Assembly (NCBI GenBank): GCA_017532085.1
Contig: JAFXJT010000010.1
Location: 7,057-71,056 of the forward strand
DNA from: Oscillospiraceae bacterium
GTDB taxonomy: Bacteria > Bacillota > Clostridia > Oscillospirales > Ruminococcaceae
Reading direction: 5' to 3'
Length of the DNA stretch: 64,000 nt
Shown here: positions 5,872 through 32,896 of the stretch, one piece after another
Position numbering within the stretch: the first letter of the stretch is position 1
Layout of the letters: every line of letters starts with the position of its first letter
Program-made: the position numbers and the translations under genes
Notes under the pieces: model-generated
What the model was told of the DNA's origin: nothing
Database searches by the model: none
What the model saw: only the letters and a program-made list of their open reading frames with translations

Positions 5872-7182
5872 TTAGCCTGCATTTTCCTGCAGCAACGGTT
5901 CTGCTTCATCGGGATGCGTTTCCTTCACGATCTCTGCACCCAATGCCCGCAGCTTGCCTACCATATCGGAATATCCTCGCTCAACATGGAAAATGTCCTC
6001 AACATAGGTCACGCCGGATGCTGCAAGTCCTGCAATCATCAACGCTGCACCCGCTCGCAGATCACAAGCCTTGACCGGTGCACCGGTCAATCTGCCCGTG
6101 CCCTCAATGACGGCAACCTTGCCATCCACTTGAATGTCGGCACCCATACGGCGCAGCTCATCCACATACTGGAACCGCTGCTCCGATACATCCTCTTTCA
6201 CCATGCTTGTCCCTTCCGCCAGACAAAGCAGCGTGGAAATCTGCGGCTGCATATCGGTCGGGAATCCCGGATGAGGACGGGTTTTGACATTGGTTTTGAT
6301 CAGCGGACCGTCTGTAAAAACACGCACCTGATCATGCTCTTCATCTGCTTCAATCTGCACGCCGATCTTTTCCATCACACTGATGATGGAATTCAGATGC
6401 CGTACCGTCACATTCTTCACAAGCACGTTGCCGCCGGTCGCTGCTGCAGCTACCATATAGGTACCTGCCTCAATCTGATCGGGAATGATCGGATAGTCTG
6501 TGCCGTGAAGATATTTGACACCACGAATCTTGATTGTATCGGTGCCGGCACCGATGATATCGGCACCCATAGAGTTCAAAAAGCTTGCCAGGTCCACAAT
6601 ATGCGGTTCCTTTGCCGCATTGCCGATCACAGTAAGTCCTTCTGCCTTGACCGCCGCCAAAATCGCATTGACGGTTGCGCCTACGGTCACCACATCAAAA
6701 AAGATCTGGTTGCCCTTCAGCGGATTGGCCGAAAGATCTACCATACCCTGTTCCAGCTTGCACTGTGCACCCAGCTTCTGGAATGCCTTCAGATGCTGGT
6801 CAATGGGACGAGCACCCAACGGGCATCCACCGGGCATGGATACACGGGCTTTGCTGAACCGACCCAGCAGCGCACCCATGAAATAATAGGATGCTCGCAT
6901 TCTTCTTGCGCTTTCATAGGGCACACAGGTACTCTTGATCCCGGTGGCATCAATTCGATAGGTATGAGGTCCCAGCTTTTCAACAATCGCGCCAAGCTCC
7001 TCCAGAATCTGAAGGCTGATGACGACATCGCTGATATCCGGAACATTTTCAATCACACAAGGCTCATCGCAGAGCAGGACTGCCGGCAGAATCGCTACGA
7101 CTGCATTCTTTGCACCGCTGATTTCTACCTCGCCCATCAGTCTCCGACCGCCCTTGATGACAAATCTGTCGGATGAATTCAC
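5872..7182 (-). CDS. murA: UDP-N-acetylglucosamine 1-carboxyvinyltransferase
   Basis: DRFVIKGGRRLMGEVEISGAKNAVVAILPA... is colinear with MurA throughout. The start is chosen at GTG 7182, which has SD AAGGAGA 7 nt upstream. The ORF-track start at 7275 has no SD. Confidence 0.92.
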   Translation of the reverse strand: MNSSDRFVIKGGRRLMGEVEISGAKNAVVAILPAVLLCDEPCVIENVPDISDVVISLQILEELGAIVEKLGPHTYRIDATGIKSTCVPYESARRMRASYYFMGALLGRFSKARVSMPGGCPLGARPIDQHLKAFQKLGAQCKLEQGMVDLSANPLKGNQIFFDVVTVGATVNAILAAVKAEGLTVIGNAAKEPHIVDLASFLNSMGADIIGAGTDTIKIRGVKYLHGTDYPIIPDQIEAGTYMVAAAATGGNVLVKNVTVRHLNSIISVMEKIGVQIEADEEHDQVRVFTDGPLIKTNVKTRPHPGFPTDMQPQISTLLCLAEGTSMVKEDVSEQRFQYVDELRRMGADIQVDGKVAVIEGTGRLTGAPVKACDLRAGAALMIAGLAASGVTYVEDIFHVERGYSDMVGKLRALGAEIVKETHPDEAEPLLQENAG

Positions 7183-11937: not shown

Positions 11938-12265
11938 TCTCCAAAGCATAGTCCACCTGTTTCATCGCTTCCTGCGGAATCTCACCCATGCGCTCCTTGA
12001 GCCGCTGTTTATCAATCGTGCGGATTTGCTCCAACAGAATAATACTGTCTTTGGAAAGACCACAGCTGGAGGCTGTCAACGAAATATGCGTTGGCAGCTT
12101 CGCTTTTTCTCTCTGGCTGGTGATGGCTGCTGCTATGACCGTGGGACTGTATCGGTTGCCAACATCATTTTGTATGATCAGAACCGGTCGGATGCCGCCT
12201 TGCTCTGATCCCACAACAGGACTTAAATCTGCATAATAAATCTCGCCTCTGCGGACTGTGAGCAT
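11846..12265 (-). CDS. mazF: type II toxin mRNA interferase MazF/EndoA, with no adjacent antitoxin gene
   Basis: [58 protein letters not shown]...[16 protein letters not shown] is almost colinear with B. subtilis EndoA. SD AAAGGAGTG precedes ATG 12265. The 3' end overlaps the ATPase gene by 92 nt. Confidence 0.9.
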
Positions 12266-12476: not shown

Positions 12477-12520
12477 AAACTTGCACGCAAACGTACAAGT
12501 TTTTGACGAAAAATCGCTGT
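12477..12520 (+). promoter_or_regulatory. operator/promoter element, site A: AAACTTGCACGCAAACGTACAAGTTTTT - N10 - CGCTGT
   Basis: A 10-4-10 inverted repeat AACTTGCACG-caaa-CGTACAAGTT sits 102 nt upstream of the terS ATG. A 27/28-identical copy with the same CGCTGT spacing lies upstream of the holin gene (site B). Confidence 0.6.
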
Positions 12521-12606: not shown

Positions 12607-13146
12607 ATGAAGGAATCTACAGCCAATGCAGCTACAAAGCGACGCTTTTGCCGCTACTATCTGCTGCTTGCCAATGCTGCCGAGGCTGCCATCCGTGCAG
12701 GTGTGCCTCCTGATGAAGCTGAGGCGGAAGCGCTGGCGATTTTACAGTCGCCCTGCTATCGCAGTTATCTTTCCGAGCTTGCCGCACAGCCCCCTCTGCC
12801 CATGCAGACTATGGTGCTTGCCGGATTGACAAGACTCGCCTTCGGTTCTGCCAATGATGCAGCAAGACTCGTGTTCCATGATGATGAGCAGCTTTCGCCC
12901 GAAGCGCTGCGTTCTCTGGATCTGTTTCATGTCTCGGAACTGAAACGGGATAAAGGCGGCGGTGTGGAAATCAAACTGTTTGATCGGCAAAAAGCAATGG
13001 AAAAATTGCTGGAGTTCTCTCACACGGCGGATTCCTCCGCTGCCGCTTCGGCGCTGCTGGCTGCCTTGCGTACACCACAGGAGGTGAACGCTGATGACAG
13101 CATCGGACAAGATGCATCAGACCATGATGCAGCCCTTCTCCCCTAA
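12607..13146 (+). CDS. phage terminase small subunit
   Basis: The N-terminus ATKRRFCRYYLLLANAAEAAIRAGVPPDEAE is TerS HTH-like (compare FcqeYl..gNat.AairAGys). KLFDRQKAMEKLLEF is also present. SD AAAGGTGG is upstream, and the 3' end overlaps terL. Confidence 0.75.
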   Translation: MKESTANAATKRRFCRYYLLLANAAEAAIRAGVPPDEAEAEALAILQSPCYRSYLSELAAQPPLPMQTMVLAGLTRLAFGSANDAARLVFHDDEQLSPEALRSLDLFHVSELKRDKGGGVEIKLFDRQKAMEKLLEFSHTADSSAAASALLAALRTPQEVNADDSIGQDASDHDAALLP

Positions 13147-14377
13147 GCAGCAGACGGTTCTGCGATGGTGGCTTGATCCGGAAACAGCACAGTATGATGC
13201 GATTCTCTGTGACGGCGCCATCCGTTCCGGAAAAACAACCGCACTGGCTCTGGGCTTTGTCATCTGGAGTTCTGCCGTCTTTCATCAGCAGAGCTTTGCT
13301 TTGTGCGGCAAAACCATTACCTCTCTGCGCCGCAATCTGATTGCACCGTTGATCGGACAACTGAAGCTTTTGGGGTTTACCGTCACGGAACGGGTCAGCC
13401 GTTCCTATTTGGATATCAGTTTTCAAGGTCACTGCAATCGGTATTATTGCTTCGGCGGCAAGGATGAGGCTTCCGCTTCCCTCATTCAAGGCATTACCCT
13501 CGCCGGCGTTCTGATGGATGAGGTGGCTCTGATGCCCCGATCCTTTGTGGAGCAGGCATTGGCTCGCTGCTCTGTACCCGGCTCAAGGATCTGGTTTTCC
13601 TGCAATCCGGAGCGCCCTTCCCATTGGTTCTATCAGGAATGGGTGCTGCAATGCAAACAGAAAAATGTGCTCTATCTTCATTTCACCATGCAGGATAATG
13701 CTTCACTGACACCTGCAATCCGCAGACGCTATGAACGAATGTACAGCGGTGCTTTCTATGAACGCTATATCAACGGAAGCTGGGTTGCCGCACAGGGGCT
13801 GGTGTATCCTATGTTCTCACAAGCACGCCATGTGGGCACGCCGCCCGAACCCTGCAGCCGCTATGTCATCTCCTGTGATTACGGCACCATGAACCCCTGT
13901 TCCTTTGGATTGTGGGGCTTTTGCAGGGATCGCTGGTATCGACTTGCGGAAAGCTACTATAATGCCAGAGAAACCGGTCTGCCGCGTACCGATGAGGAAC
14001 ACTATCAGACCTTGTGCCGGCTGGCAGAGCACTATCCCATTGAACAGATCGTCATTGATCCTTCGGCGGCAAGCCTGATTGCCTGTATCCGCCGCCACGG
14101 CAGATTCTGCGTGATCCCCGCACAAAACGATGTGCGCAGCGGCATTCAGCGTGTGGCAGATGCCCTGCGTGAGGACAAGCTGTGCTTTGCACCCTCCTGC
14201 AAGGATACCCTCAGAGAATTCTCTCTCTATGCTTGGGATGAACACGCTGCCAAGGATGCTCCCGTGAAGGAAAATGATCACGCAATGGATGACATCCGCT
14301 ATTTCGTCAGCACGGTATTGTGCCAATCGGATAAGCCCGCTTTCTTTGCGGCTTCGCTTGCAAGAGCACAAGGGTAA
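13094..14377 (+). CDS. phage terminase large subunit (PBSX-type)
   Basis: Walker A CDGAIRSGKTT, Walker B GVLMDEV, and nuclease-domain motifs SCDYG and NDHAMDDIRY. SD GGAGGTGA lies 6 nt before ATG 13094. Confidence 0.9.
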   Translation: MTASDKMHQTMMQPFSPKQQTVLRWWLDPETAQYDAILCDGAIRSGKTTALALGFVIWSSAVFHQQSFALCGKTITSLRRNLIAPLIGQLKLLGFTVTERVSRSYLDISFQGHCNRYYCFGGKDEASASLIQGITLAGVLMDEVALMPRSFVEQALARCSVPGSRIWFSCNPERPSHWFYQEWVLQCKQKNVLYLHFTMQDNASLTPAIRRRYERMYSGAFYERYINGSWVAAQGLVYPMFSQARHVGTPPEPCSRYVISCDYGTMNPCSFGLWGFCRDRWYRLAESYYNARETGLPRTDEEHYQTLCRLAEHYPIEQIVIDPSAASLIACIRRHGRFCVIPAQNDVRSGIQRVADALREDKLCFAPSCKDTLREFSLYAWDEHAAKDAPVKENDHAMDDIRYFVSTVLCQSDKPAFFAASLARAQG

Positions 14378-14423
14378 TCTGCTGAAATTTCCCCGTACTG
14401 TTATCAGAAAGGAGGTTTTTTCT

Positions 14424-15641
14424 CTGGGATTTTTTTCGTTTTCCAAGCTGCGGCGCAGCAAAAGTAATGGGCTTGCCTCCTCCTCGGTAATCTCCACCAC
14501 GGCAATCCGAGGCAGAGCTGCCGATTCGCTGCTGCCTGCCACGCACTTTGCGGCACCGGCTGCCGCAGAATGGCAGCTTTATGAAGGTCTGCGCTATGCT
14601 GTTCCTGTCATTGATGCTGCATTTCGTAAGATTGTAAGGCTCAGCGGCGGCTTTCATTTTACGGTTGACAATGATGCCGCACAATCGTTTTTGGATCAAT
14701 TCTGCGAAACCGTACCGGTTAATGCATCGAGCTGCTCCATGCAGAGCTTTGCCGATCAGATGCTGGACTGCCTGCTGCTCTATGGCAATGCTGTGGGTGA
14801 AATGCTCCTTGCCGATGAGGATGGATCGCTCAGCGGTCTGCGCATCCTCCATCCGGCCGCGGTTATCATGGAACAGACTGCACCCAATCAATGTCGCTTT
14901 TCCATGCGCACATCCGACAGCGATAAGCCCATTCCTGTCCGCCGACCCGAACAGCTTCTCTTTACGGCGCTGAATCCTCCGGCAGGCGGTCTGTATGGTG
15001 TATCGGTTCTGCGCGGCATCCCTGCTCTCAGCCGTATTTTGCTGCGCATTTACGAATGCATCGGGCAGAATTACGATCGGGCAGGCAATGTGCGCTATGC
15101 CGTGACGTATCATCCCGATGGTGATCCCGCCTCGCTTGCCTTCGCCAAAGATCACGCCGAGGAAATCGCTGCTGCATGGCAGGATGGCATCCGTGCCGCA
15201 CAACACGGCGAAATCCGAGATTTCATCTCTGTGGGCAATGTGGAAATCCATGCCATCGGTGCGGATCACACCATGCCGAACACCGAAATCCCCGTAAGAC
15301 AGCTGCTGGAACAGATTGTCTCTAAGCTTTCCATCCCACCGTTCCTGCTGGGATTTTCTTGGTCTACCACAGAACGAATGTCCTCTCAGCAAGCCGATAT
15401 TCTTACCTCGGAGCTGGAATATTTCCGCAGACTCCTCACGCCTTTGCTGCTGAAAATCGCAGAAGCAGCACTGCGCAGTCAGGGCTTTGCCGAACATCCC
15501 GTCATCTGCTGGGATCACATCAATCTGCAGGACGAAACCGAACTTGCGGAAGCAAGACTCAAAAATGCACAGGCGCATGAAATCGAACTGCGCAATCAAA
15601 TCACCGAAACCGAAATGAGAAAGGATTGTTCAAATGTATAA
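14424..15641 (+). CDS. phage portal protein (start uncertain: CTG 14424 or ATG 14274)
   Basis: About 405 aa directly after terL. The portal-like N-terminus (M/L)GFFSFSKLRRSKSNG follows SD AAAGGAGG by 8 nt, but the codon there is CTG. The only in-frame ATGs (14274 and 14289) overlap terL by about 90-104 nt and lack an SD. Confidence 0.75.
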   Translation: MGFFSFSKLRRSKSNGLASSSVISTTAIRGRAADSLLPATHFAAPAAAEWQLYEGLRYAVPVIDAAFRKIVRLSGGFHFTVDNDAAQSFLDQFCETVPVNASSCSMQSFADQMLDCLLLYGNAVGEMLLADEDGSLSGLRILHPAAVIMEQTAPNQCRFSMRTSDSDKPIPVRRPEQLLFTALNPPAGGLYGVSVLRGIPALSRILLRIYECIGQNYDRAGNVRYAVTYHPDGDPASLAFAKDHAEEIAAAWQDGIRAAQHGEIRDFISVGNVEIHAIGADHTMPNTEIPVRQLLEQIVSKLSIPPFLLGFSWSTTERMSSQQADILTSELEYFRRLLTPLLLKIAEAALRSQGFAEHPVICWDHINLQDETELAEARLKNAQAHEIELRNQITETEMRKDCSNV

Positions 15642-16602
15642 TTCCGTAAAACTGGAAAAGGGTATGTATCACCTCGCCAACACCTCCTTCCTGCAGGCTT
15701 TGGAGCAGGCAGATCCCTCCGAGCAGTATGCAGGTACGCCGCTGGGCACTCTGGATGCCTTTGAGCGTCAGCTCAAGCGTTTTGATATCCATATCAGCGG
15801 TCCCGAGTGCGACTGCGTCGAAAAGTTCTTTACCACCACCGAAAGCGCTGTTCTGTTCCCTGAATTTGTACGCCGTGCCGTGAAACAGGGCATGGAGGAG
15901 TCCATTCTCTCGGAGCTGACTGCTGCAACCACGGCTGTCAACGGCACCTCTTACAAGGGCTTTGCGATTGATGAAACCGATGGTGCTTACTCCGCCACCG
16001 CTGCCGAAGGCACCGATATGAAGGTAACTGCCATCACAGAAGCGTCCTCTGCTGTGGCACTGGCCAAATATGGCAGAGTGATTTCCGCTTCCTATGAAAT
16101 CGTGCGCAGACAGCGTCTTGACAGCTTTGCCGTCGCATTGCGTGCCATCGGCAGAAAACTTGCCGGAGCCATCGTCGCAACGGCGCTGACCCAGCTCAAA
16201 GACTCTGTTACGGCAATCTCTTTGTCCGGCAGCGATCTTTCCTATGCGGATCTTGCCAATCTCTATGGTCAGTTCACCGACTATAACATGACAACTCTGG
16301 TGGCTTCTCCCAAGAATGTGGCGCTGATCTTAGCCATGGAGCAGATGTCCGATCGCTGTGCCGATGAAAATGGTCATGTCTATCTGCCCTTTGGTGCAAA
16401 GCTGCTCAAGGATGCTTCTTTGGAGGATACCGTTATGATCGGTCTGTGCAAGGATTATGCGCTGGAATGCATTACCGGCTCTGAGCTGCTGCTGGAAACC
16501 GATCAGCTCATCAATTGTCAGCTCGATCGCATTGCCGTTTCTGTCCGCATCGGCTTCCTGCCATTGATGGATGGCGCTACCGCTGTCTTAGAATGGAGCT
16601 GA
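15634..16602 (+). CDS. putative HK97-fold major capsid protein (no delta domain)
   Basis: 322 aa. VALAKYGRVISASYEIVRRQRLDSFAVALRAIGRKLAGAI resembles the conserved MCP core. The position in the head module fits, and the start overlaps the portal stop by 8 nt. Confidence 0.65.
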   Translation: MYNSVKLEKGMYHLANTSFLQALEQADPSEQYAGTPLGTLDAFERQLKRFDIHISGPECDCVEKFFTTTESAVLFPEFVRRAVKQGMEESILSELTAATTAVNGTSYKGFAIDETDGAYSATAAEGTDMKVTAITEASSAVALAKYGRVISASYEIVRRQRLDSFAVALRAIGRKLAGAIVATALTQLKDSVTAISLSGSDLSYADLANLYGQFTDYNMTTLVASPKNVALILAMEQMSDRCADENGHVYLPFGAKLLKDASLEDTVMIGLCKDYALECITGSELLLETDQLINCQLDRIAVSVRIGFLPLMDGATAVLEWS

Positions 16603-16637
16603 TGTTCACCCACCTCAACGAAAGGAGTATCCACACA

Positions 16638-17543
16638 ATGGGACATATGACCGATGAGGCATTGCTGGAAAAACTCAATGCCTTCACCAGACGTGCACAT
16701 TCGCTGGATGAGGTCTATCTCTTTGATCTCATCCTCTGCGATAACGAGATCGACCGTGACGGCGACTGCTTTTCCAAAGAAGCGCTGCTTTCTCTGCAGG
16801 AACGCTTCGTGGGCGTAACGGGAATCTTTGATCACAATCCTCGCTGCGGCAATCAGAATGCACGCATCTTCCATACCGAGCTGATGGAGGACAATACCAG
16901 AAAAACTGCATATGGTCAGCCCTATCTCTATCTGAAAGCCAATGCCTATATGATTCGCACAGAAAGCAATCAGGATCTCATCCGCGAAATCGAAGGCGGC
17001 ATCAAAAAAGAGGTCAGCATTTCCTGTGCTGCCTCTCAACAGATCTGCTCGATCTGCGGTGCCAACCGTCTGCAGAAAAACTGCGGCCATATCAAAGGAA
17101 GATCGTATGGCGGTGCACTGTGCTATCGGGTGCTGGATGGTATCACCGATGCCTATGAATGGAGCTTCGTTGCGGTGCCTGCTCAGAAAAATGCAGGTGT
17201 CACCAAAACAATGGGCGGCAAGCTTCTCGATGCGGAACGGCAGCAGCTTTATGATGCCTTGGAACAGGCCAATGCTTCTCTGGATGTGCTCACCGAAGCT
17301 CTGCGAAGGGAGGTTGTAAAGCTCTGCTATAAAGAGGGTGACAGCATCTGCGCCAGAATGCTTGCCGAAAGCACCATACATATGGATGCCGATGCTCTGC
17401 TCTCTCTGAAGAAATCGCTGGAGCTTTTAAAGCCTGCGGCACAGCCTCCCATTGATCACAAAGCTTCGTCCCATGCCGATCCTGCATCCAAAGGGATCCG
17501 TGCCTTCTCCATGCAGGGAAAGCGAGGCGAGGCGCACCGATGA
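16638..17543 (+). CDS. putative prohead protease / scaffold (S78 / XkdF-like)
   Basis: NEIDRDGDCFSKEALLSLQERFVGVTGIFDHNP...KKEVSISCAA resembles the prohead protease core. The C-terminal third is Ala/Leu/Glu-rich and helical (scaffold-like). SD GAAAGGAG is upstream. Confidence 0.6.
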   Translation: MGHMTDEALLEKLNAFTRRAHSLDEVYLFDLILCDNEIDRDGDCFSKEALLSLQERFVGVTGIFDHNPRCGNQNARIFHTELMEDNTRKTAYGQPYLYLKANAYMIRTESNQDLIREIEGGIKKEVSISCAASQQICSICGANRLQKNCGHIKGRSYGGALCYRVLDGITDAYEWSFVAVPAQKNAGVTKTMGGKLLDAERQQLYDALEQANASLDVLTEALRREVVKLCYKEGDSICARMLAESTIHMDADALLSLKKSLELLKPAAQPPIDHKASSHADPASKGIRAFSMQGKRGEAHR

Positions 17544-17896
17544 ATGTGGAACAATGTGCCAAGCTCTTTGCTTTGTTCGCTGCGCTTGAGGATATTACCC
17601 CCTATCAGCCTTTGCTGGATGCTGCTGTCATAGAATGCAGACAGCAGCTGAAAGAGGGCGCTGATGAATCCGATATCCGTTTGTGCTATTACTGTGCTGC
17701 CATTGCCAATCTGCGCTATACCCAGATGATCGCTGCACGCAGTACGCTTTCCCATACATATGCCGGTACCCTTGCAAAATCCCATGATGAAACCATCCCC
17801 CATCGCTTTGCAGAACGTCTGTGGCAGGAATACCGAGCGCTGGCAAAGGATCTGCTCCGGAATGAGGATGTTCTCTTTTCTGCGATGGTCGGCTGA
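17540..17896 (+). CDS. putative head-tail adaptor/connector protein
   Basis: A 118-aa helical protein immediately after the head genes. Its start overlaps the upstream stop as ATGA. The function is inferred from size and position only. Confidence 0.45.
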   Translation: MNVEQCAKLFALFAALEDITPYQPLLDAAVIECRQQLKEGADESDIRLCYYCAAIANLRYTQMIAARSTLSHTYAGTLAKSHDETIPHRFAERLWQEYRALAKDLLRNEDVLFSAMVG

Positions 17897-17913
17897 AATC
17901 AGGAGGTTCTACG

Positions 17914-18354
17914 ATGGCATATCTCTCTACACTCACCAGTTCCATCATCCGTGCCATGCAGGATATCGGTATGCGCGCCGAACGGGAATATCACAATAAG
18001 CCTGTGGATCACTATGGCAGCACTACCTTCGCTACCGTTGCTCTGGAACGGCTGATCTATGGAAAACCCCTTCCCCATTCAGAGGGCACGGTCTTTCCTC
18101 TGACCGCTACCATTCGGGTCAGACTGTATTGTCCCACAGAGTATCATACCGGTTTGCTGGAAACACAATGCGATCTGTATCTGATTCCCGCATTGCTCAA
18201 TGCGCAGCTTGATCTGCGAAAAATCATTACCGAACCGCCCTTTTTCGATGCAAAAATCGGCATGCTCTGTATGCCGGTGCATATTACGGCGGATACCCTT
18301 GCAACCCGCACATGGATCGAAACCGATACAGAAACGGAGGCTGATCAGCCATGA
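17914..18354 (+). CDS. hypothetical phage-like protein (possible neck/stopper-terminator type)
   Basis: 146 aa. SD CAGGAGG is upstream, and the stop overlaps the next start as ATGA. The function is not recognised. Confidence 0.55.
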   Translation: MAYLSTLTSSIIRAMQDIGMRAEREYHNKPVDHYGSTTFATVALERLIYGKPLPHSEGTVFPLTATIRVRLYCPTEYHTGLLETQCDLYLIPALLNAQLDLRKIITEPPFFDAKIGMLCMPVHITADTLATRTWIETDTETEADQP

Positions 18355-18824
18355 GCTATTATCTCTATGATCTGGATACCTCGCCTACGGTACGCACGGT
18401 GATTCTGGACGATATGACACTCCTTGTGGAAGGCTTTTCTTTGGAAGAAGAACGTCCTTATGATCTGATGCTGCTCATGGATGGCAGCTATCATCAGGAG
18501 GCTATGAACAAAAAGCCTTGTCTGCTCACCTTAACCGGCAGAATTGCTCCGTCGGAGGAAATGGATCTTTTGGAATTCTTCCGCCGTGCCATCGGGCAAA
18601 AAACCGCATTTTCTTTTTCGTTCGGTGAAATGCTCTTTGCCGATATGCGGATCTGCCGGTATCGGCTGAAGGCAGAGGAGGGCGCTCGGATTGCAGCGTA
18701 TTCCTTGACGCTTGTGGGCAGCACCCATCAGCCCTATACCGACGACGAAGTGGAGATTCTGCCGTTTTCTGTACGGGATCCCGAACAGACGATGACAGAC
18801 GGAAAGGAAGGGCAGAGCATTTGA
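18351..18824 (+). CDS. hypothetical phage-like protein (possible distal-tail/Dit-like)
   Basis: 157 aa. SD GGAGG is upstream, and the gene is translationally coupled on both sides. The function is not recognised. Confidence 0.55.
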   Translation: MSYYLYDLDTSPTVRTVILDDMTLLVEGFSLEEERPYDLMLLMDGSYHQEAMNKKPCLLTLTGRIAPSEEMDLLEFFRRAIGQKTAFSFSFGEMLFADMRICRYRLKAEEGARIAAYSLTLVGSTHQPYTDDEVEILPFSVRDPEQTMTDGKEGQSI

Positions 18825-19771
18825 ACGCTATTTTGCAGCTCGATGTGATACAGACCTATGAAGTGATCGAAGTACAGTGTCTGCGCTTTACCCTCACACG
18901 GGATCACTATCTCCCCTATGCAGAGCTGAAGGCGGAATTCATCAGCGAGGCCTTCGGTCATGGTTTTCCCCGTCATGCAAAGTTCTATCTCGACGATATG
19001 CTGCTCTTTGAGGGTCTGGCGGATCATGTGAAGATCGTCAAGAAGAATGGCCGAAAGCTTGTTGCCATCTCAGCCAAAAGCTATTCCGCCGCTTTGCTGG
19101 ATAATCAGCCCACACCCGGTATTTATCCCAATGCAACGCTTTCTTCGCTGATGTCTCTATATCATCTCCCGTATATCACCTATCAGCAGAATGTGAATCA
19201 AAGCAATTACGTCTATGTGAAGGATAATACCTCCATGTGGGAAATGCTCATTCACTATACCTATAAGCTCAACGGCGGCTTCCCCTATATTGAAGGGAAC
19301 AATCATGTCAGGGTCACACGGCACAGTCAGCCCAGACTGTTTGAAATTCAGCCGGAAGAGATCATCAGCTGCGGCACACAGCATGATAACTCCCGTGTGA
19401 TCAGCCGTATCGAAATGGCAGATGCTGCAGGCAATTACGGTACCTTTTCCATGAACAATCCCTATGCAGAGGAACGCAATATCGTGCGTATCAAGCAGAT
19501 TGCACTGGATAAGCAGTATCTTTCCCATCCCGAATATGCGCTGACGCATCGCATCTATCGCAGTATGCAGAAGATTCGCACAACCTATGCAGAGTATCTC
19601 GGCTATAAGGGAGAGGATTTGCAGGATCATGTCTGTTTTATCGGATTCTCCACCGGTTATGCCGATCGCATCGAAATCCACGGAGAGCAAGGTCGGCTGT
19701 CTACAAAGGTGTATCATTATCATGATCCGTTCTGCAATTGCATTACTACACCGCCGGACAGCGATCGCTGA
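18821..19771 (+). CDS. hypothetical phage-like protein (weak resemblance to XkdQ / gpD-type tail hub)
   Basis: 316 aa. TTG start 18821 has SD GGAAAGGAAGGG 7 nt upstream and overlaps the previous stop. The pattern F.EG.ADHVKIVKKNGRKLVAISAKSYSAALLDN...NATLSSLM recalls hub/late-control-D-type proteins, but this is not verified. Confidence 0.5.
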   Translation: MNAILQLDVIQTYEVIEVQCLRFTLTRDHYLPYAELKAEFISEAFGHGFPRHAKFYLDDMLLFEGLADHVKIVKKNGRKLVAISAKSYSAALLDNQPTPGIYPNATLSSLMSLYHLPYITYQQNVNQSNYVYVKDNTSMWEMLIHYTYKLNGGFPYIEGNNHVRVTRHSQPRLFEIQPEEIISCGTQHDNSRVISRIEMADAAGNYGTFSMNNPYAEERNIVRIKQIALDKQYLSHPEYALTHRIYRSMQKIRTTYAEYLGYKGEDLQDHVCFIGFSTGYADRIEIHGEQGRLSTKVYHYHDPFCNCITTPPDSDR

Positions 19772-19825
19772 TCGCTTTGGAATTTGAGATTCTTCATAGG
19801 AATTCATCAAAATCCTTGACAAGAC

Positions 19826-19868
19826 GGCTGCAATATGGTAAAATATATCCATATTGCAGCCGTTTTTT
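19826..19868 (+). terminator. strong intrinsic terminator closing the phage-like head cluster
   Basis: A perfect 13-bp stem GGCTGCAATATGG / CCATATTGCAGCC with a 10-nt loop, followed by GTTTTTT. A TTGACA-17-TAAAAT promoter for the next gene overlaps it. Confidence 0.85.
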
Positions 19869-19918
19869 GGTCTGTGATAGATCAGATTGTACACAATTTG
19901 TTGAGGAGGAGTTTTATC

Positions 19919-25651: not shown

Positions 25652-28408
25652 TTACGATTCCAGCCGGATCTGCAGGATTGCCGCTGATCCGGGTACGGAA
25701 AGCACCAGCCGATCACTTTGTGCTGCATTGGATGGCAGCGCAATCGTATAGGCTGCAAAATCATCATATGCATTGCTTGCCGCAATGGGCACTGCAATGG
25801 GTTCGGCATCACCGATCTGCACCCAAAGGGTATCGTCTTTGTTGGTAGACTGTGCCAGCAGCGTTATTTTGCTCTTGCCGCAGTAATCCACACCGGCGTA
25901 TACCGCAGTTCCCTGATAGCTGACAGCCCGCAGATAATGTGCCTTGCGGGATTTGGAATAAAAGCTCTGCATCCCCGCAGCCTCATCAAACAGCTCGGCC
26001 GAAAATTCAGCAGGACGCTTGCCAAGCGTTTCTCCCGCAACCATACAATCTGCCTGCAGCCGAAGATCCTCCGAGGATGCGCCGGCAAAGAATCGATAGC
26101 AGCCGCCCTCCACCATCATACGGCCACTCCGCACATTGAAAATCTCAAGGAAATCGGAAGGCACATACAACGATACAGCGGTACGCTCTCCTGCCTGCAG
26201 ATGCACACGGCAAAAGGCACAAAGCTTTTTATTGGCACGGCGCACAGCGGAATCCGGCATCGTCACATACAGCTGTACCACCTCATCGCCATCCACTGCA
26301 GAAATATTCTCTACCGTCAGCTTTGCTCTGACACCATCCCGCTCGGGCTGTACCGTCAGATCGCTGTATGCAAAGTCGGAATAGCTCAGACCATAGCCAA
26401 AGGGATACAATGCTTTTCCCTCAAAATACTGATAGGTAAGTCCTGCAGATACAATATCATACTGCATCAGATCCCGTGGGAGCTCCAGCTCACTGCGATA
26501 CCATGTCAAAGGCGTTCTGCCTGCCGGATTGTTTTGGCCGGATAGAGTCGCAGCAACCGCTGTGCCCAGATAAGGACCTGCATGAGAAGTATACAAAATA
26601 GCAGAAAGCTGTTCCTGCTCCTCGCAAATGGCATAGGGATAGCTGGAAATCAGCACCATAACCGTCGCAGGATTCGCAGCCTGCAGCACCTTTGCCATGC
26701 CGCTTTGTACATTCAATGCAAGCGTTTTGCGATCATAACATTCCTTTGCAACCTGTACCGGATGATTGCCGACACAGTAGACAACCAGATCATTTGCCTT
26801 TGCCAATGCCGCAGCGCGATCGGTGCCCTTGGAGATCACTGTCATTGAAAACAACTGCTCTGCGCAAATATTGCGGCCGGATACGGCACAGATCTTGCCC
26901 TCTGCATCACATTGCAGACGCAAGCCGTGCTGAAAATCCTCCATGAGCATCTTGCCGGCATAGGGGTACAAAAACAAAGTTTCACGGGTAAACCAATCGT
27001 AGATGTCACGATGATGCAGCCGCAGCTGCCGGTCATCTCCGCAGCGCACATAGCGCTGATATCGGATCGAAAACAGATTGCACCAGTTTTCGCCCCAATT
27101 CTGCAGCGCAAACAGTTCACTTTCTGTCACACAATCCGCATCGGCAATCACAGAACCGTCCTCTTTTGCCGACAGATACTTTCCGTTTTCTGCAAGAATC
27201 GCCACATGATCCCACAAATCGTCATGCGTGACCTCTGCTTTTGAGAATTCTGATCGGATGCCTTTCAGCACCGAAATTTCCTCCTTGGCATATCCTGTAT
27301 ACCAATCCTTCAGATTCTCATCGGCAAGCGGACCAACCACAGCAATCTTGTTCGGATGCTTCCGGACAGGCAGCAGCCCATCGTTCTTCAGCAGAATCAT
27401 CTGTTTCATAGCAGCACGGCAATTGCATGCTTCCGACAGCAGCATATGAATGTCTTTCTCGGTAAAGGCATCATAATCACAATGCTCTGCCAATTGTCCG
27501 AGCCGCAGTCTTGCATAGATCGTATTGAGAACAGAGGCATCCAGATCCGCTTCGGTGATTCTTCCTTCTTCCAGCGCTTTTTTCGCTGCCATCGCAACCA
27601 AAGTATCCTCATCGGTCATGATATCGCAGCCGGCAAGCAGAGCATTGGCAAAGGCTTCGGAATGGGTATCACAGTCATGATGCGCCGTCAGAAGCTGAGA
27701 AAAATCGCCGCCGTCACTGACAACAAACCACAATCCCCATTGCTCCTTGAGCAGTGTTTGGAGTTCGGGATTGCATATCGCAGGCACACCATTGATCTCG
27801 TTATAGGCAGCCATAATGCTTTTGGCACCGCCATGACAGATGGCATACCGGAAGGCTGCATAGTAATACTCATATTTCAGTCGGGGCGGCAGATAAGCAT
27901 TGCAATGTCCTCTGCCTTCCTCATTGTTATTGGCACAGAAATGCTTGAGCGTCGGAATCGTCATCAGATAGTTGCCGTCATCTCCTGCCATACCCTTGGT
28001 ATAGGCAGCAGTCAGACAGCCTGCAAGACAGACATCTTCGCCATAGGCTTCCTCGGTTCTGCCCCATCGGGGATCCCGTACCATATCGACCGTAGGCCCC
28101 CACAATGCAAGACCGCCCTTGGGATCGGCATTGTAATAGGCACGCGCTTCCATGCCGGCAATCCGTCCGAGATTCTCCATCAGCAACGGATCAAAGGTTG
28201 CCGCAAGGCCCACAGGCTGTGGAAATACGGTGGAGCTGCGCTCCGGACTGCGTCCCACATAGCCTCTGGCCACCTCGGTACCGATATAGAACTCCGGAAG
28301 CCCCAGCCGTTCTACCGCATGGTGATGGGTAGTCAGCAAATGAAGCTTTTCTTGCAGCGTCAATGCTGCTACAATGGAGCATGCACGCTCAAAAATCTTC
28401 TGTTTCAT
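25652..28408 (-). CDS. glycoside hydrolase family 3 (beta-glucosidase/xylosidase type) with an inserted module
   Basis: DPRWGRTEEAYGED, KHFCANNNEEGR and the nucleophile region VVSDGGD are present. No signal peptide was seen. The start at ATG 28408 is uncertain because the SD is weak. Confidence 0.85.
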   Translation of the reverse strand: MKQKIFERACSIVAALTLQEKLHLLTTHHHAVERLGLPEFYIGTEVARGYVGRSPERSSTVFPQPVGLAATFDPLLMENLGRIAGMEARAYYNADPKGGLALWGPTVDMVRDPRWGRTEEAYGEDVCLAGCLTAAYTKGMAGDDGNYLMTIPTLKHFCANNNEEGRGHCNAYLPPRLKYEYYYAAFRYAICHGGAKSIMAAYNEINGVPAICNPELQTLLKEQWGLWFVVSDGGDFSQLLTAHHDCDTHSEAFANALLAGCDIMTDEDTLVAMAAKKALEEGRITEADLDASVLNTIYARLRLGQLAEHCDYDAFTEKDIHMLLSEACNCRAAMKQMILLKNDGLLPVRKHPNKIAVVGPLADENLKDWYTGYAKEEISVLKGIRSEFSKAEVTHDDLWDHVAILAENGKYLSAKEDGSVIADADCVTESELFALQNWGENWCNLFSIRYQRYVRCGDDRQLRLHHRDIYDWFTRETLFLYPYAGKMLMEDFQHGLRLQCDAEGKICAVSGRNICAEQLFSMTVISKGTDRAAALAKANDLVVYCVGNHPVQVAKECYDRKTLALNVQSGMAKVLQAANPATVMVLISSYPYAICEEQEQLSAILYTSHAGPYLGTAVAATLSGQNNPAGRTPLTWYRSELELPRDLMQYDIVSAGLTYQYFEGKALYPFGYGLSYSDFAYSDLTVQPERDGVRAKLTVENISAVDGDEVVQLYVTMPDSAVRRANKKLCAFCRVHLQAGERTAVSLYVPSDFLEIFNVRSGRMMVEGGCYRFFAGASSEDLRLQADCMVAGETLGKRPAEFSAELFDEAAGMQSFYSKSRKAHYLRAVSYQGTAVYAGVDYCGKSKITLLAQSTNKDDTLWVQIGDAEPIAVPIAASNAYDDFAAYTIALPSNAAQSDRLVLSVPGSAAILQIRLES

Positions 28409-28518
28409 CTCATCCGTACAGCTCTTTTGGCAAGAGCCATCCTCCCCTTCCAAATCTTGTCTCAGTATAGCATATCCCCACTGCTTTGTCCAGTCATTCC
28501 TGTGCTGATTTTCCGCAA

Positions 28519-28564
28519 CAAAAATCCCCTCGGATTTCTGTGTTTGCAGCACAGATCCGAGAGG
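28519..28564 (-). terminator. intrinsic terminator ending the holin-lysin unit
   Basis: On the minus strand, CCTCTCGGATCTGTG...CACAGAAATCCGAGGGG is followed by ATTTTTGTTG. Confidence 0.65.
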
Positions 28565-28575
28565 ATTCTGAGGCT

Positions 28576-29442
28576 TTATGCCTGACTAAGAGATGCGCGG
28601 GTCTTGGGACCGCAGACGCCATCCACCTCCAACCCGCAATCGGTCTGATAGCAGCGTACTGCCCGTTCGGTATCGGGACCGAAGCTGCCATCAATACCCG
28701 CTGTTCCGCAAGAATAGCCCTTTTGTATCAGATGCCATTGCACCCAGCGGACATCATCGCCCTTGCTGCCACGGCGCTGCGGCTTTGTGGGCATCCCATA
28801 CGGACAGCCCTCCGGTGGATTGGCAGATACGGTTCCGAATCCGTTTTTCTGCTTTTTCCGCATTATGGCAGGATAGGCAAGATAGGCATAATTCAGATCC
28901 ACCTTGCCGGAAATCCCGTTGACACTGCCAGTATGGGAATATTGCCACATACCATAGGGATACCGATAGGAAGTCTTGCTGACACCGGTATGTGCCACCC
29001 AGACGGCATAGCGGCGCAGAATGCGTTCAGAGAGTTTCTGCTCCAGGAAATACTTATAGGAATAAATCCCTGCAAAATAGCCTGCTGCCTCCAACCTTTG
29101 ACAAAACGCCTCCACAATGGCATCCACCTGTTCTCTGCGCAGCATACGCTGTATCGTATCCTCAATATCAAAATAAATGGGATAGGCAAAGGTTTTGCCT
29201 TCCAGAAGCTGCAGCACTGCCTGTGCCTCTCTGTCGGCAGCCTGAGGCGTTGTGGCATAGCTGTAACAATAGGCACCCACCGGAATGCCTGCTGCGGATG
29301 CTCCTTGATAATTCTCACCGAAGCGCAGATCGGCACCGTTGCAATATACCCGCAGCACAGCAAATTCCACACCGCTTTCCGCCACCTGCTTCCAGTTGAT
29401 TCTGCCTTGATGCGCAGAAACATCAATTCCTTTGATCGCCAT
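28576..29442 (-). CDS. GH25 muramidase endolysin with C-terminal PG_binding_1 domain
   Basis: MAIKGIDVSAHQGRINWKQV...GAYCYSYA...YFDIED is a GH25 core. The C-terminus GDDVRWVQWHLIQKGY...IDGSFGPDTERAVRCYQ...VDGVCGPKT is peptidoglycan-binding. SD GGAAGGAG is upstream. Confidence 0.88.
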   Translation of the reverse strand: MAIKGIDVSAHQGRINWKQVAESGVEFAVLRVYCNGADLRFGENYQGASAAGIPVGAYCYSYATTPQAADREAQAVLQLLEGKTFAYPIYFDIEDTIQRMLRREQVDAIVEAFCQRLEAAGYFAGIYSYKYFLEQKLSERILRRYAVWVAHTGVSKTSYRYPYGMWQYSHTGSVNGISGKVDLNYAYLAYPAIMRKKQKNGFGTVSANPPEGCPYGMPTKPQRRGSKGDDVRWVQWHLIQKGYSCGTAGIDGSFGPDTERAVRCYQTDCGLEVDGVCGPKTRASLSQA

Positions 29443-29446
29443 GCTG

Positions 29447-29644
29447 TTACGCTCCTTCCTCACGATTCATGATCGCCGCAATACCGGCTGCCACGGCTGC
29501 CACACAGAATCCGATCACTGCCGATCGGGTACTGAAATCCGCAGCAGCAACATTGACCACCACATAGCCTGCGGCTGCCTGCAAAAATGTACGCAGTGTG
29601 CGCCGCATACATTCCGATTTGCAAAATGTTTTCAAGCTGTTCAT
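29447..29644 (-). CDS. phage holin (r1t-holin-like)
   Basis: 65 aa: MNSLKTFCKSECMRRTLRTFLQAAAGYVVVNV...VIGFCVAAVAAGIAAIMN. It lies immediately upstream of the endolysin, separated by 4 nt. SD AAAGGAGA is upstream. Confidence 0.7.
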   Translation of the reverse strand: MNSLKTFCKSECMRRTLRTFLQAAAGYVVVNVAAADFSTRSAVIGFCVAAVAAGIAAIMNREEGA

Positions 29645-29740
29645 TGCATTCTCCTTTGTCGCAATCGCTGTTTTATGCCGCAGCCCGCATCTGCCCTCCG
29701 AACCCATGGAAGCCGCAGCAATGCTCCATCGCCCTCATAC

Positions 29741-29786
29741 ACAGCGGAAAATGCGGAAAAACTTGTACGTTTCCGTGCAAGTTTTT
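29741..29786 (-). promoter_or_regulatory. operator/promoter element, site B: AAACTTGCACGGAAACGTACAAGTTTTT - N10 - CGCTGT (read on the minus strand)
   Basis: 27/28 identical to site A at 12477-12504. The CGCTGT box lies 10 nt downstream as at site A, and the holin ATG lies 112 nt downstream. The orientation relative to the operon matches site A. Confidence 0.6.
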
Positions 29787-29796
29787 GGATGGGATA

Positions 29797-29836
29797 CAAA
29801 AAAATCAGCGATGTGCACAATACACACCGCTGATTT
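29797..29836 (-). terminator. valS intrinsic terminator
   Basis: On the minus strand, AATCAGCG-(17 nt)-CGCTGATT is followed by TTTTTTT. Confidence 0.7.
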
Positions 29837-29857
29837 TCAGCAAATATTACAATTGTT

Positions 29858-32482
29858 TTATTGTTTCCAGCTTGCAATGGACTGCAATACTTTCGCAAGC
29901 TTTTCCTCGGCTTTCGCAAGCTTTTCCCGCTCAGCGGCAATGAGCTGTGCAGGTGCCTTTTCACAGAATCCGGGATTATCCAGTTTTTTCTGCACGAATT
30001 CAATATCCTTGCGTACCTTTGCTTCTTCCTTGGCAAGACGTGCCAGCTCTTTCTCCACATCCACGAGCTGTTCCATGGGGATGAAGATCCGAGCCACATC
30101 GGTAACGGCAGTCACAGCGTTCTTAAACTGATAATTCTGACCGAATTCCAGCTCAGAGGCAGAAACCAGATTCTCAAAGAACATCGAGCAGGAGGAGAAC
30201 AGTTCAACCTCAAGGGTTTCAAAATACAGCTTTGCCTTTGCGGAATTGGGAACATTCAGCTCGGTACGAATGGTACGGACTGCTTTGATGGCTGCAATGA
30301 CCTTTTCAAAGTCCTCAGCGGTCTTGGTGTAGTCATTTTCCTCGCAGTATACCGGGAAGTCCTCCAGCATGATCATGCTCTCATCGTTGGTGAGCACCTG
30401 CCAGATTTCCTCGGTGATGAAAGGCATAAACGGATGCAGAAGCTTCAGCATACCACGCAGAACCCATACCAGAACTGCCTGTGCCTGTTCCTGACTCTCG
30501 CCGCCTGCACGCAGACGGGATTTGGTCAGCTCGATATACCAATCGCAGTATACATCCCAGATGAAATCATAAAGCTTTGCAGAAGCAACGCCCAACTCAA
30601 ACTTATCCAGATTGTCATTGACATCTTTGGCAAGCTGATTGAACTTGGAGACAATCCACTGATCCTCCATACGCAGCGTTTGCGGCAGACCGGTAAAGGT
30701 AAAGTCCTCCGGCAGATTCATCATGACAAAACGAGAAGCATTCCACAGCTTATTGGCAAAATTACGGGCAGCCTTGACCTTATCATCAATGAAGCGCATA
30801 TCATTGCCGGGCGAGTTGCCGGTTGCCAGCATAAAGCGCAAAGCATCGGCACCGTAATTGTCAATGACCTCCAGCGGATCAATACCGTTGCCCAGAGACT
30901 TGGACATCTTTCTGCCCTGTGCATCACGTACCAGACCATGGATCAGAACGGTCTTGAAGGGTGCAACGCCATCCATGTGCTCCAGACCGGCAACGATCAT
31001 ACGAGAAACCCAGAAGGTAATGATATCATAACCGGTTACCAGCGTATCCGTGGGATAGAAATACTGCAGATCCTCTGTGTTCTGCGGCCAGCCCAGCGTG
31101 GAGAACGGCCACAAAGCAGAGCTGAACCAAGTATCCAGCGTATCGGGATCCTGCCGCATTGCCTTGCCGCACTTCGGACAAACGGCACTGTCTTCCCGTG
31201 TGACTACCAGCTCACCGCAATCATCGCAATAGAAAGCAGGAATCCGATGGCCCCACCACAGCTGACGGGAAATACACCAGTCACGGATATCCTCCATCCA
31301 GTTAAAATAGAGCTTGTTGAAGCGTTCGGGAACAAACTTGATCTCGCCGCTGCGCACCGCAGCAATCGCAGGCTTTGCAAGCTCCTCCATCTTCACAAAC
31401 CACTGCAGCGAAACTCTCGGCTCAACCGTAGTACCGCAGCGATAGCAGGTACCGACATTATGAACATGCGGCTCGGTTTTGATGAGGAATCCGCCTTTCT
31501 CCAGATCAGCAACAATTGCCTTTCGGGCAGCATAGCGATCCATTCCGGCATAGTCCGGATACTCCTCCGTAATCTTGGCATCATCGGTCATCACATTGAT
31601 GACAGGCAGCTGATGCCGCTGACCTACCATAAAGTCATTGGGGTCATGGGCCGGCGTAATCTTCACAACACCCGTACCGAATTCCATATCCACATAGCTG
31701 TCAGCAACCACAGGAATCTCTCTGCCAACCAGCGGAAGAATCAGCTTTTTGCCAACCAGATGTGCATAACGCTCATCCTTGGGATTCACAGCCACAGCCG
31801 TATCGCCCAGCAGCGTTTCGGGACGTGTGGTGGCAAGCTCCATGTAGCCGGAGCCATCGGCAAATGGATACCGCAGATGCCAGAAGCAGCCATCCTGCTC
31901 CTCATAGGTCACTTCGGCATTGGAAATGGAGGTCAGACAATGAGGACACCAGTTGATGATGCGCTCGCCGCGGTAAATCAGACCTTTTTCGTAATATTTT
32001 ACAAAGACTTCCTTCACCGCCTCAGAGCAGCCTTCGTCCATTGTAAAGCGTTCCCGCTCCCAATCGCAGGAGGAACCGAGCTTCATCAGCTGCTGATCAA
32101 TTCTGCCTGCATACTGCTCTTTCCAAGCCCATGCACGCTCCATGAAGCCATCTCTGCCGATGTCATCCTTGGTCACGCCTTCCTTGCGCATGGCTTCCAC
32201 GATTTTCGCTTCCGTAGCAATGGCAGCGTGATCGGTACCCGGCAGCCAAAGCGCGGAATAGCCGCTCATACGCTTCCAGCGGATCAGAATATCCTGCAAG
32301 GTTTCATCCAGTGCATGTCCCATATGCAGCTGTCCTGTGACATTGGGAGGCGGAATGACAATTGTATAGGGAATCTTTTTGGGATCAACCTCTGCATGGA
32401 AGCAGCGTTTTTCCATCCACTGCTGATAAATGCGATCTTCAAAGGTACTCGGGTCATAGTTTTTTGCCAGTTCCTTGGCCAT
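29858..32482 (-). CDS. valS: valine--tRNA ligase
   Basis: MAKELAKNYDPSTFEDRIYQQW, PPPNVTGQLHMGHA and KMSKSLGN are present, with a C-terminal coiled coil. SD AAAGGAG is upstream. Confidence 0.95.
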   Translation of the reverse strand: MAKELAKNYDPSTFEDRIYQQWMEKRCFHAEVDPKKIPYTIVIPPPNVTGQLHMGHALDETLQDILIRWKRMSGYSALWLPGTDHAAIATEAKIVEAMRKEGVTKDDIGRDGFMERAWAWKEQYAGRIDQQLMKLGSSCDWERERFTMDEGCSEAVKEVFVKYYEKGLIYRGERIINWCPHCLTSISNAEVTYEEQDGCFWHLRYPFADGSGYMELATTRPETLLGDTAVAVNPKDERYAHLVGKKLILPLVGREIPVVADSYVDMEFGTGVVKITPAHDPNDFMVGQRHQLPVINVMTDDAKITEEYPDYAGMDRYAARKAIVADLEKGGFLIKTEPHVHNVGTCYRCGTTVEPRVSLQWFVKMEELAKPAIAAVRSGEIKFVPERFNKLYFNWMEDIRDWCISRQLWWGHRIPAFYCDDCGELVVTREDSAVCPKCGKAMRQDPDTLDTWFSSALWPFSTLGWPQNTEDLQYFYPTDTLVTGYDIITFWVSRMIVAGLEHMDGVAPFKTVLIHGLVRDAQGRKMSKSLGNGIDPLEVIDNYGADALRFMLATGNSPGNDMRFIDDKVKAARNFANKLWNASRFVMMNLPEDFTFTGLPQTLRMEDQWIVSKFNQLAKDVNDNLDKFELGVASAKLYDFIWDVYCDWYIELTKSRLRAGGESQEQAQAVLVWVLRGMLKLLHPFMPFITEEIWQVLTNDESMIMLEDFPVYCEENDYTKTAEDFEKVIAAIKAVRTIRTELNVPNSAKAKLYFETLEVELFSSCSMFFENLVSASELEFGQNYQFKNAVTAVTDVARIFIPMEQLVDVEKELARLAKEEAKVRKDIEFVQKKLDNPGFCEKAPAQLIAAEREKLAKAEEKLAKVLQSIASWKQ

Positions 32483-32499: not shown

Positions 32500-32896
32500 T
32501 TTTCCGATCTTGTCATAAATGCGGTCAAATAAAAATCGCCCTGAACACAGAAAACACCATATGCTCTCTATGCTCAGGACGAACGGTTTCCATCAGGGCA
32601 ATGGGAATCACATCCGTGGTACCACCTGAATTCGGCAAAGCGTTTCAAACGCTCACAGCCGCACTCTTTGCTCGGACAGCGAGGCTGCAGCTGCACCCGA
32701 CTGACCTTCTCTGTAACGGGAGAACCCGTCAGACACTACACACAACCGATTGTGAAAGATCCTGACACAATCTGCTGCTTTGCATCCGCAGCTCGAAACG
32801 CGACTTCGGAGCAACCATCGAAGCATTTTCACCAACCATGCTCTCTCTGAACGACGGGGAACGCTCTTACTCCTCGTTTGTCATCGCTTTTCTATT
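32500..32896 (-). promoter_or_regulatory. T-box riboswitch leader, Val specifier (GUC)
   Basis: Read on the minus strand, Stem I carries the AGAGAG and GGUUGGUGAAA elements. The specifier loop reads CCGAAGUCGCG, with the codon at 32802-32804. The T-box core reads UUCAGGUGGUACCACGG (32614-32632). A terminator GCCCTGA...TCAGGGCGATTTTTATTT precedes the valS SD. Confidence 0.85.

Follow-up and report, generated by a model that had tools for sequence, protein, structure and literature searches.

A 65-aa holin-like gene and a 288-aa endolysin gene form a two-gene cassette in an Oscillospiraceae bacterium (assembly GCA_017532085.1, contig JAFXJT010000010.1), where they lie between valS and a gene for a glycoside hydrolase of family 3 (GH3). 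We analysed the 64,000-nt stretch of the contig that contains them (positions 7,057 to 71,056, hereafter the window), which also holds a nine-gene cluster of phage-derived structural genes beginning with terS. The initial annotation of this DNA had placed the pair in a transcription unit of its own, with an upstream element (its site B) and a terminator, far from other phage genes, and our analysis bore out the open reading frames (ORFs), the protein domains, the terminators, the upstream element and the distance, the closest phage-type gene ending 8.8 kb from the cassette (Table 1). The endolysin ATG lies 4 nt past the holin stop codon. The unit is self-contained, with its own promoter element, strong terminators on both sides and the GH3 promoter outside it; the sequence of the valS terminator, which forms its upstream boundary, is identical in a sister species.

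Table 1. Positions in the window of the lysis cassette, the structural cluster and neighbouring features.
Feature	Coordinates	Strand	Basis or remark
valS intrinsic terminator, upstream boundary of the cassette	29796..29838	-	18-bp stem then U7; -26 kcal/mol, z -6.4
Palindromic promoter element of the cassette, AAAAACTTGCACGGAAACGTACAAGTTTTT	29757..29786	-	about 10 nt past the valS terminator
24-nt core of this palindrome	29760..29783	-	
Predicted -10 region, GCTGTGTATGAG	29734..29745	-	putative function, from promoter alignment
Holin-like gene, 65 aa	29447..29644	-	ORF, ribosome-binding site AAAGGAG, hydropathy
Endolysin gene, 288 aa	28576..29442	-	Pfam, PHROGs
Cassette intrinsic terminator	28519..28570	-	-30.9 kcal/mol, z -5.2; U-run after the stem
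Second palindrome copy	12477..12505	+	about 100 nt upstream of terS
24-nt core of the second copy	12478..12501	+	
Nine-gene phage-derived structural cluster	12607..19771	+	Pfam, PHROGs, NCBIfam, structure model
Last gene of the cluster, 316 aa	18821..19771	+	structure model
Intrinsic terminator closing the cluster	19818..19872	+	inverted repeat I20; -41.8 kcal/mol, z -6.8
valS	32482..29858	-	gene on the upstream side of the cassette
T-box leader 5' of valS	32591..32893	-	Rfam RF00230, 99 bits
GH3 promoter, sigma-70-like	28492..28464		beyond the cassette terminator
Upstream ORF of 11 codons before the GH3 gene	28405..28440	-	strong ribosome-binding site GGGGAGG
mazF/pemK toxin gene	11846..12265	-	divergent from terS

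The endolysin has an N-terminal Glyco_hydro_25 domain beginning at residue 6 (Pfam, 6.5e-29), a C-terminal PG_binding_1 domain (2.9e-17), a PHROG endolysin match (3.9e-47) and no signal peptide; this union of a catalytic and a wall-binding domain without a secretion signal is what identifies it as an endolysin. Its top PDB sequence match is the pneumococcal 1,4-beta-N-acetylmuramidase 2ww5, and the Asp and Asp-x-Glu residues that align between the two (D7, D92, E94, D182) are retained. A true prophage (L048; L numbers are our handles for loci outside the window) carries a 49%-identical endolysin together with tail genes, an XhlA-like gene, a holin, a serine recombinase and a PolA-type replication module. 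As in the window, a small transmembrane protein is followed there by a GH25 plus PG_binding_1 endolysin without a signal peptide, whereas the window cassette lies outside any prophage, without tail or integrase neighbours, and the two holins are not homologous. Lone GH25 plus PG_binding_1 relatives of the endolysin, at four loci, repeatedly adjoin NAD genes (nadB/nadC/radical SAM or pnuC).

The 65-aa protein has a basic N-terminus, two hydrophobic segments and a charged C-terminus, and as a small membrane protein encoded directly before a muralytic gene it has the features by which we recognise a holin. Its own PHROG matches are weak (phrog_4316 at 9e-6; the holin family phrog_443 at 1.8e-4). 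Directly 3' of its relatives in 27 viral contigs stands an Amidase_3, Amidase_2 (with or without LysM), CHAP or NlpC/P60 gene, and this repeated position ahead of interchangeable wall hydrolases supports the holin assignment; homologs also stand upstream of orthologous endolysins in relatives of the window species. The narrower r1t-type label of the initial annotation did not survive: Pfam Phage_r1t_holin (PF16945) has no match at E <= 10 in the window protein and reaches only E = 2.4 and 8.7 bits in the holin homolog at L045, the cut-off being 26.9, so we reject membership of that family for lack of a significant Pfam match.

The feature that connects the cassette to the structural cluster is its promoter. 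The holin-like gene is preceded by a palindrome of 30 nt, AAAAACTTGCACG-N-AAACGTACAAGTTTTT, with a weak -10 after it. As had been proposed, the cassette and the terS cluster have this element in common: the 24-nt core occurs at these two places only, with no further copy in the 64-kb window even at <= 6 mismatches and 0 in 100 shuffles. The holin-side palindrome is 96% identical to the terS copy, the two are oriented alike relative to the downstream gene, and their spacing is similar, 10 non-conserved bases being followed in both by CGCTGT and a weak -10-like TATG. In our alignment GCTGTGTATGAG at the holin corresponds to CGCTGTATGTGA of the terS promoter and to CGCTGTATAGTGA of the family consensus described below. 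Both window copies also have the same derived T-to-C change in the promoter-distal half-site, which is absent from the sister species (GCA_045596625.1). A consensus scan found no canonical sigma-70 promoter at the holin or on the terS strand; the palindrome occupies the -35 region of the predicted promoter and is a putative binding site of a dimeric regulator.

We considered and set aside other readings of the palindrome. Its RNA has a folding energy of only -9 to -12 kcal/mol, whereas the real terminators here reach -24 to -42, and the position of the palindrome, right after the strong valS terminator or beside a divergent gene and at a fixed distance from the -10, also disfavours an intrinsic terminator. 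A LexA/SOS box is rejected because none of 19 genuine genome loci lies upstream of recA, lexA or uvr genes, and matches to sporulation-sigma and CodY sites are presumably too weak to use.

Scanning one genome per species for the exact pattern gave 25 loci, 19 of them in Oscillospiraceae or Ruminococcus-type genomes, with two or three promoter sites in several of the genomes scanned; further scans yielded 107 loci in metagenomes and 9 in IMG/VR, with the same few gene classes downstream. The family consensus is AACTTGTACG-N4-CGTACAAGTT, 17 nt, then TATAGT-GAAAGGG. With TATAGT as the -10 and this spacing, the centre of the 24-30-bp palindrome would fall about 41.5 nt before the predicted start (-41.5) and the palindrome would replace the -35 hexamer. 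Such a non-canonical promoter would have the geometry of class II activation of the CRP/FNR type, and the core contains TGTA-N8-TACA. Homologous terS-terL-portal-MCP (major capsid protein) clusters follow the element at six loci (at least 6 genomes besides that of the window), and at two more (L158, L162), where the exact pattern fails, a diverged element still precedes terS. At L008 the element precedes a non-homologous chromosomal cassette of Amidase plus Phage_holin_4_1, located after hrcA-grpE-dnaK...htrA, and at L022 a stand-alone 610-aa beta-helix fibre-like gene, whose promoter is identical over ~60 nt to the terS-cluster promoter of the same species. This fibre-like gene, seen at three loci, lies ~100-1932 nt past the motif, alone amid host genes (PNPase, others). 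The sister species has two more motif loci, one ahead of a three-gene unit (65-aa, 225-aa and XhlA-like proteins) in host context and one ahead of a secreted GH30/CBM/dockerin enzyme.

Other genes stand behind the same element. Phage replication modules follow it at five loci, and gyrB-gyrA lies directly downstream of palindrome and -10 at three loci and ~30 metagenome loci, all of one Clostridia lineage. L008 belongs to a relative of that lineage, so an essential gene and a lysis cassette are found behind one promoter type. Within one abundant species, ~60 nt of the promoter are virtually identical among metagenome loci. The palindrome also occurs downstream of parA-parB in two phage-plasmid-like viral contigs, where it could be a ParB/centromere-type operator. 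Five metagenome contigs join the upstream flank of one promoter class to the downstream genes of another; these mixed flanks around the 60-nt promoter may reflect recombination at the promoter repeat or assembly chimeras. Judged by its sequence distribution, the element is a genuine, evolving promoter/operator of the phage-derived gene set and of related mobile phages, not exclusive to them.

The structural cluster encodes TerS, a PBSX-family TerL, a portal protein, a Phage_capsid_4 MCP, a 293-aa protein, three small proteins and a 316-aa protein. In relatives the gene of the 293-aa protein stands between those of portal and MCP, the position of a scaffold or protease. An AlphaFold model of the 316-aa protein (pLDDT 69, pTM 0.70) matches baseplate-hub proteins in Foldseek (Mu gp44, MuSo2, T4 gp27, VgrG; E ~1e-15, TM-score ~0.65). 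What the initial annotation called a head cluster does contain head genes but is not limited to them, and the modelled hub fold suggests a head plus a minimal tail tip. The hub-fold protein evolves fast, with 51% identity where the MCP has 80%. Sequence searches of PDB, Pfam, PHROGs and NCBIfam returned nothing for the undescribed proteins of the cluster, and no integrase, replication or lysis gene was found among the nine. The same nine genes, again without integrase or lysis genes, recur at L158 and L162, beyond the species and genus of the window: GCA_965357615.1 has them beside the same MIP-GNAT flank, GCA_054275095.1 in another context. The gene content persists across MCP divergence down to 73%. 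Homologs of the MCP number >3500, with identities graded from 96% to 55% and many on long chromosomal contigs; among 50,697 phage records we found five matches, at 37-42% identity. MCP relatives at ~40% identity, at two IMG/VR loci, carry sheath, tube and baseplate genes, which points to descent of the cluster from a PBSX-like myovirus whose contractile-tail module was mostly lost.

Both loci have been kept over time. Contigs of the same species have an identical cassette arrangement, and the sister species (89% nucleotide identity) has the order valS, holin, endolysin, GH3, M20, gltX ... MIP, structural cluster. Between the two species, dN/dS is 0.12 for the endolysin and 0.16 for the holin, compared with 0.16 for GH3, 0.11 for M20 and 0.05-0.17 for the three cluster genes tested (TerS, TerL and the hub-fold gene). 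The cassette values are in the range of the adjoining genes and of the tested cluster genes, showing that the cassette is under selection like its neighbours. The more distant GCA_944388075.1 (86% valS identity) carries a homologous holin (35%) and endolysin (52%) flanked by valS and ileS, and its palindrome stands 56 nt ahead of the holin. At L031 and L045 the element precedes the orthologous holin. The GH3 gene is absent beside the L045 cassette and is not a conserved neighbour. A comparison of the valS-GH3 interval among relatives had been suggested as a way to date the insertion; the synteny and purifying selection seen with the sister species, and the palindrome and cassette beside valS at 86% valS identity, indicate an old resident. 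The structural cluster, for its part, lacks integrase, replication and lysis genes, is vertically inherited and is under purifying selection, the combination by which a gene transfer agent (GTA) cluster is recognised.

Some neighbouring features deserve mention. Genes for a P-type ATPase, MazF and a MIP channel flank the cluster. The mazF/pemK toxin gene and the P-type ATPase ORF overlap at their 3' ends, and upstream of the toxin gene we saw no antitoxin ORF of 70 aa or more. Searches for RNA families and tRNAs in or near the cassette found only the T-box leader of valS, and the window contains no tRNA. The TGA of the 11-codon upstream ORF (MALAKRAVRMR) and the start codon of GH3 share bases in an ATGA, as would fit translational coupling of the two or a leader peptide of the GH3 gene.

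The initial annotation had likened the arrangement to RcGTA, and the literature offers precedents for a detached lysis locus both there (PMC5026251) and in FpGTA (PMC12946183). RcGTA of Rhodobacter capsulatus is a multilocus GTA 'genome' under common control, exerted via CtrA; its endolysin-holin locus (rcc00555-rcc00556) lies away from the structural cluster but shares its inheritance (PMC5026251). It resembles the window in having a two-gene lysis locus apart from the structural cluster and vertically inherited with it, and differs in host (Alphaproteobacteria versus Clostridia), in its unrelated proteins, in the distance involved (hundreds of kb versus 17 kb) and in being linked by CtrA control where the window has a palindromic promoter element. 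Control of RcGTA also runs through GafA. FpGTA of Faecalibacterium prausnitzii (operons I and II), published in January 2026, has a terS-to-MCP operon with holin and endolysin 125 kb away, and no promoter or regulator is described for it in that paper (PMC12946183). It comes from the same bacterial order as the window, and likewise combines a compact terS-terL-portal-scaffold-MCP operon without lysis genes with a holin and endolysin elsewhere on the chromosome. However, FpGTA has an N4-gp56-family MCP and a peptidase M15 endolysin, whereas the window has a Phage_capsid_4 MCP, a PBSX-family TerL and a GH25 endolysin, and in FpGTA the lysis genes belong to one operon with baseplate and fibre genes, those of the window standing alone. 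We compared the two by an annotation proxy, the annotations of supplementary file 4 against the Pfam/NCBIfam matches of the window, and by this proxy the window does not belong to the FpGTA lineage, its MCP having no NCBIfam match and its endolysin being of the GH25 family.

PBSX of Bacillus subtilis (xhlA-xhlB-xlyA) provides a further comparison. Like the system proposed for the window, it is a particle system of defective-phage type in a Firmicutes host, the window TerL is of the PBSX family, and XhlA-like proteins occur in the sister species, where this promoter type precedes one, and in the related prophage, ahead of the holin. PBSX, under the control of Xre and Xpf, is a contiguous stretch of ~28 kb that encodes a contractile tail and has its lysis genes adjacent; the window lacks the tail module, and its lysis genes lie apart. 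What is newly described here, relative to the known detached GTA lysis loci, is the shared palindromic promoter.

We give about an even chance to the reading that the cassette serves as the detached lysis module of a GTA-like particle system, phage-derived, domesticated and spread over several loci, in an uncultured cellulosomal Oscillospiraceae. The mostly chromosomal occurrence of the MCP homologs and the other genes that stand by themselves behind this promoter, the fibre-like gene and the unit with the XhlA-like protein, also favour it. The lysis genes occupy a separate locus with a promoter element that also stands at the structural genes, and by analogy with the detached-lysis organisation of RcGTA and FpGTA, which the window appears to match while differing from FpGTA in lineage by the proxy used, we file the cassette as the detached lysis locus of a GTA-like system. 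From this we infer a mechanism in which a dimeric regulator would bind the palindrome and activate or de-repress the cassette promoter, and would drive the terS-to-hub cluster 17 kb away, and probably further loci, at the same time. Holin and endolysin would be co-transcribed; the holin, with two transmembrane segments, would accumulate in the membrane and permeabilise it, and the cytoplasmic, signal-less GH25 muramidase would then reach the wall, dock via PG_binding_1 and cut the glycan strands. Capsids would meanwhile assemble, and the producing cell would burst and release assembled particles, presumably GTA-like in nature.

Several observations weigh against this reading. Apart from its orthologs, the endolysin is closest (52-57% identity) to lone GH25 plus PG_binding_1 genes without holin, palindrome or signal peptide, so that an autolysin origin is possible. 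The initial annotation had taken the shared element as the link between head and lysis genes; this holds within the window, but the element is not private to them, since in relatives gyrB-gyrA, replication modules of phages and phage-plasmids, the GH30 enzyme and fibre-like genes also stand behind it, which points to a common regulator and not necessarily to a dedicated GTA regulon. No regulator gene was found in the window or beside any cluster; a cluster-adjacent regulator was rejected because the upstream neighbours vary by genus (mazF, a tetM-like GTPase, PadR, Rrf2, PNPase) and none is conserved. The palindrome before the holin has one mismatch in the sister species, where the -10 is less conserved, and cassette and structural cluster were seen together in two species and not in the third cassette species, L045. 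Beyond the hub-fold protein, the window contains no tail, fibre or tape-measure gene that we could find.

Some of this evidence would also suit a host-domesticated programmed-autolysis cassette that has nothing to do with particles, an explanation we consider unlikely. Such a cassette might release cytoplasmic enzymes, DNA or public goods, form membrane vesicles or mediate altruistic lysis under stress or in stationary phase, and it would be tied to the capsid cluster merely through a host regulator so general that many genes depend on it. The promoter type does precede non-phage genes in relatives (gyrB-gyrA and the secreted GH30/dockerin enzyme), another lineage has gyrB and an amidase plus holin cassette behind it with no capsid cluster seen, and the lone GH25 plus PG_binding_1 paralogs are ordinary chromosomal genes. 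However, the only other copy of the element in the window is at terS, the two copies have the same derived base change, and GH3, whose presence next to the cassette is not conserved, has a promoter of its own. In addition, the structural cluster is without lysis genes of its own in every species examined, so that a lysis function would be needed in trans. In yet another reading, the palindrome would serve temperate phages or phage-plasmids of these bacteria as operator or activator site. Cluster and cassette would then be switched on only upon induction of, or infection by, such a phage, leading to satellite-like hitch-hiking or to early lysis that aborts infection. Near-identical promoters before replication and other modules of phage-like contigs (with parA-parB, PolA, primase and portal genes), the 49%-identical endolysin of a true prophage and the module shuffling around the promoter repeat in metagenome contigs are consistent with such a helper-responsive remnant. 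We nevertheless regard it as quite unlikely: no integrase, replication, packaging-site or interference gene lies beside cluster or cassette, nor any tRNA in the window, and the chromosomal position kept across species and the purifying selection on the genes fit vertical inheritance rather than a mobile satellite.

A non-functional leftover of a decayed prophage, with head and lysis modules split by rearrangement, would account for the phage origin of the genes, for the PBSX-like contigs with sheath, tube and baseplate genes in which ~40%-identity MCP relatives are found, and for one metagenome contig (L093) with a cluster truncated after TerL. It is highly improbable, given that the ORFs are intact with dN/dS of 0.05-0.17 for every gene tested between the two species, that promoter, terminators and endolysin catalytic residues are conserved, and that the same nine genes persist down to 73% MCP identity. 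The flanks of the cluster (mazF, P-type ATPase, MIP channel) and the absence of integrase, alpA, stl-like and replication modules, as of any tRNA in the window, led us to reject a capsid-forming phage-inducible chromosomal island or other satellite. An intact or recent prophage was rejected on the grounds that the modules lie 8.8 kb apart across housekeeping genes, that GC content is ~50% throughout and that synteny is kept in the sister species. Secretion of the TcdE/TcdL or ChiWXYZ type was likewise rejected: no cargo is linked, and GH3, absent beside the L045 cassette, has its own promoter behind the terminator.

If the cassette is the lysis module of a GTA-like system, its promoter may have a wider meaning. 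A 2026 report found GTA-like packaging to be the commonest capsid-mediated mobilisation of host DNA in human gut Ruminococcaceae and Oscillospiraceae, Ruminococcus callidus included, and identified no cluster for Ruminococcus (PMC12946183). For the window, this work on related taxa gives indirect support to particles that would package random pieces of host DNA, each too small to carry the encoding genes. It is possible, though on balance rather doubtful, that the palindromic promoter marks the full multilocus 'genome' of an unrecognised, widespread GTA family of gut and rumen Oscillospiraceae, distinct from FpGTA. This genome would comprise the nine-gene capsid-hub cluster, the detached holin-endolysin cassette and detached fibre and XhlA-like genes, and the family could be the source of the packaging reported for Ruminococcus and other genera. 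To our knowledge, the genes encoding such packaging are known only in Faecalibacterium, and we know of nothing on their control.

The locus adds a second, non-homologous GTA candidate (homology being judged by the annotation proxy) with the same split organisation as FpGTA, and one in which a sequence-defined promoter element links the dispersed parts; with this element the members of the regulon can be listed for any genome and the regulator retrieved. The two-gene lysis cassette offers a simple genetic handle on whether particle release and gene transfer depend on programmed lysis in anaerobes that are hard to study. If the promoter does mark such a GTA family, its governing host regulator, which in some lineages would also drive gyrase, would couple particle release to the state of the cell.

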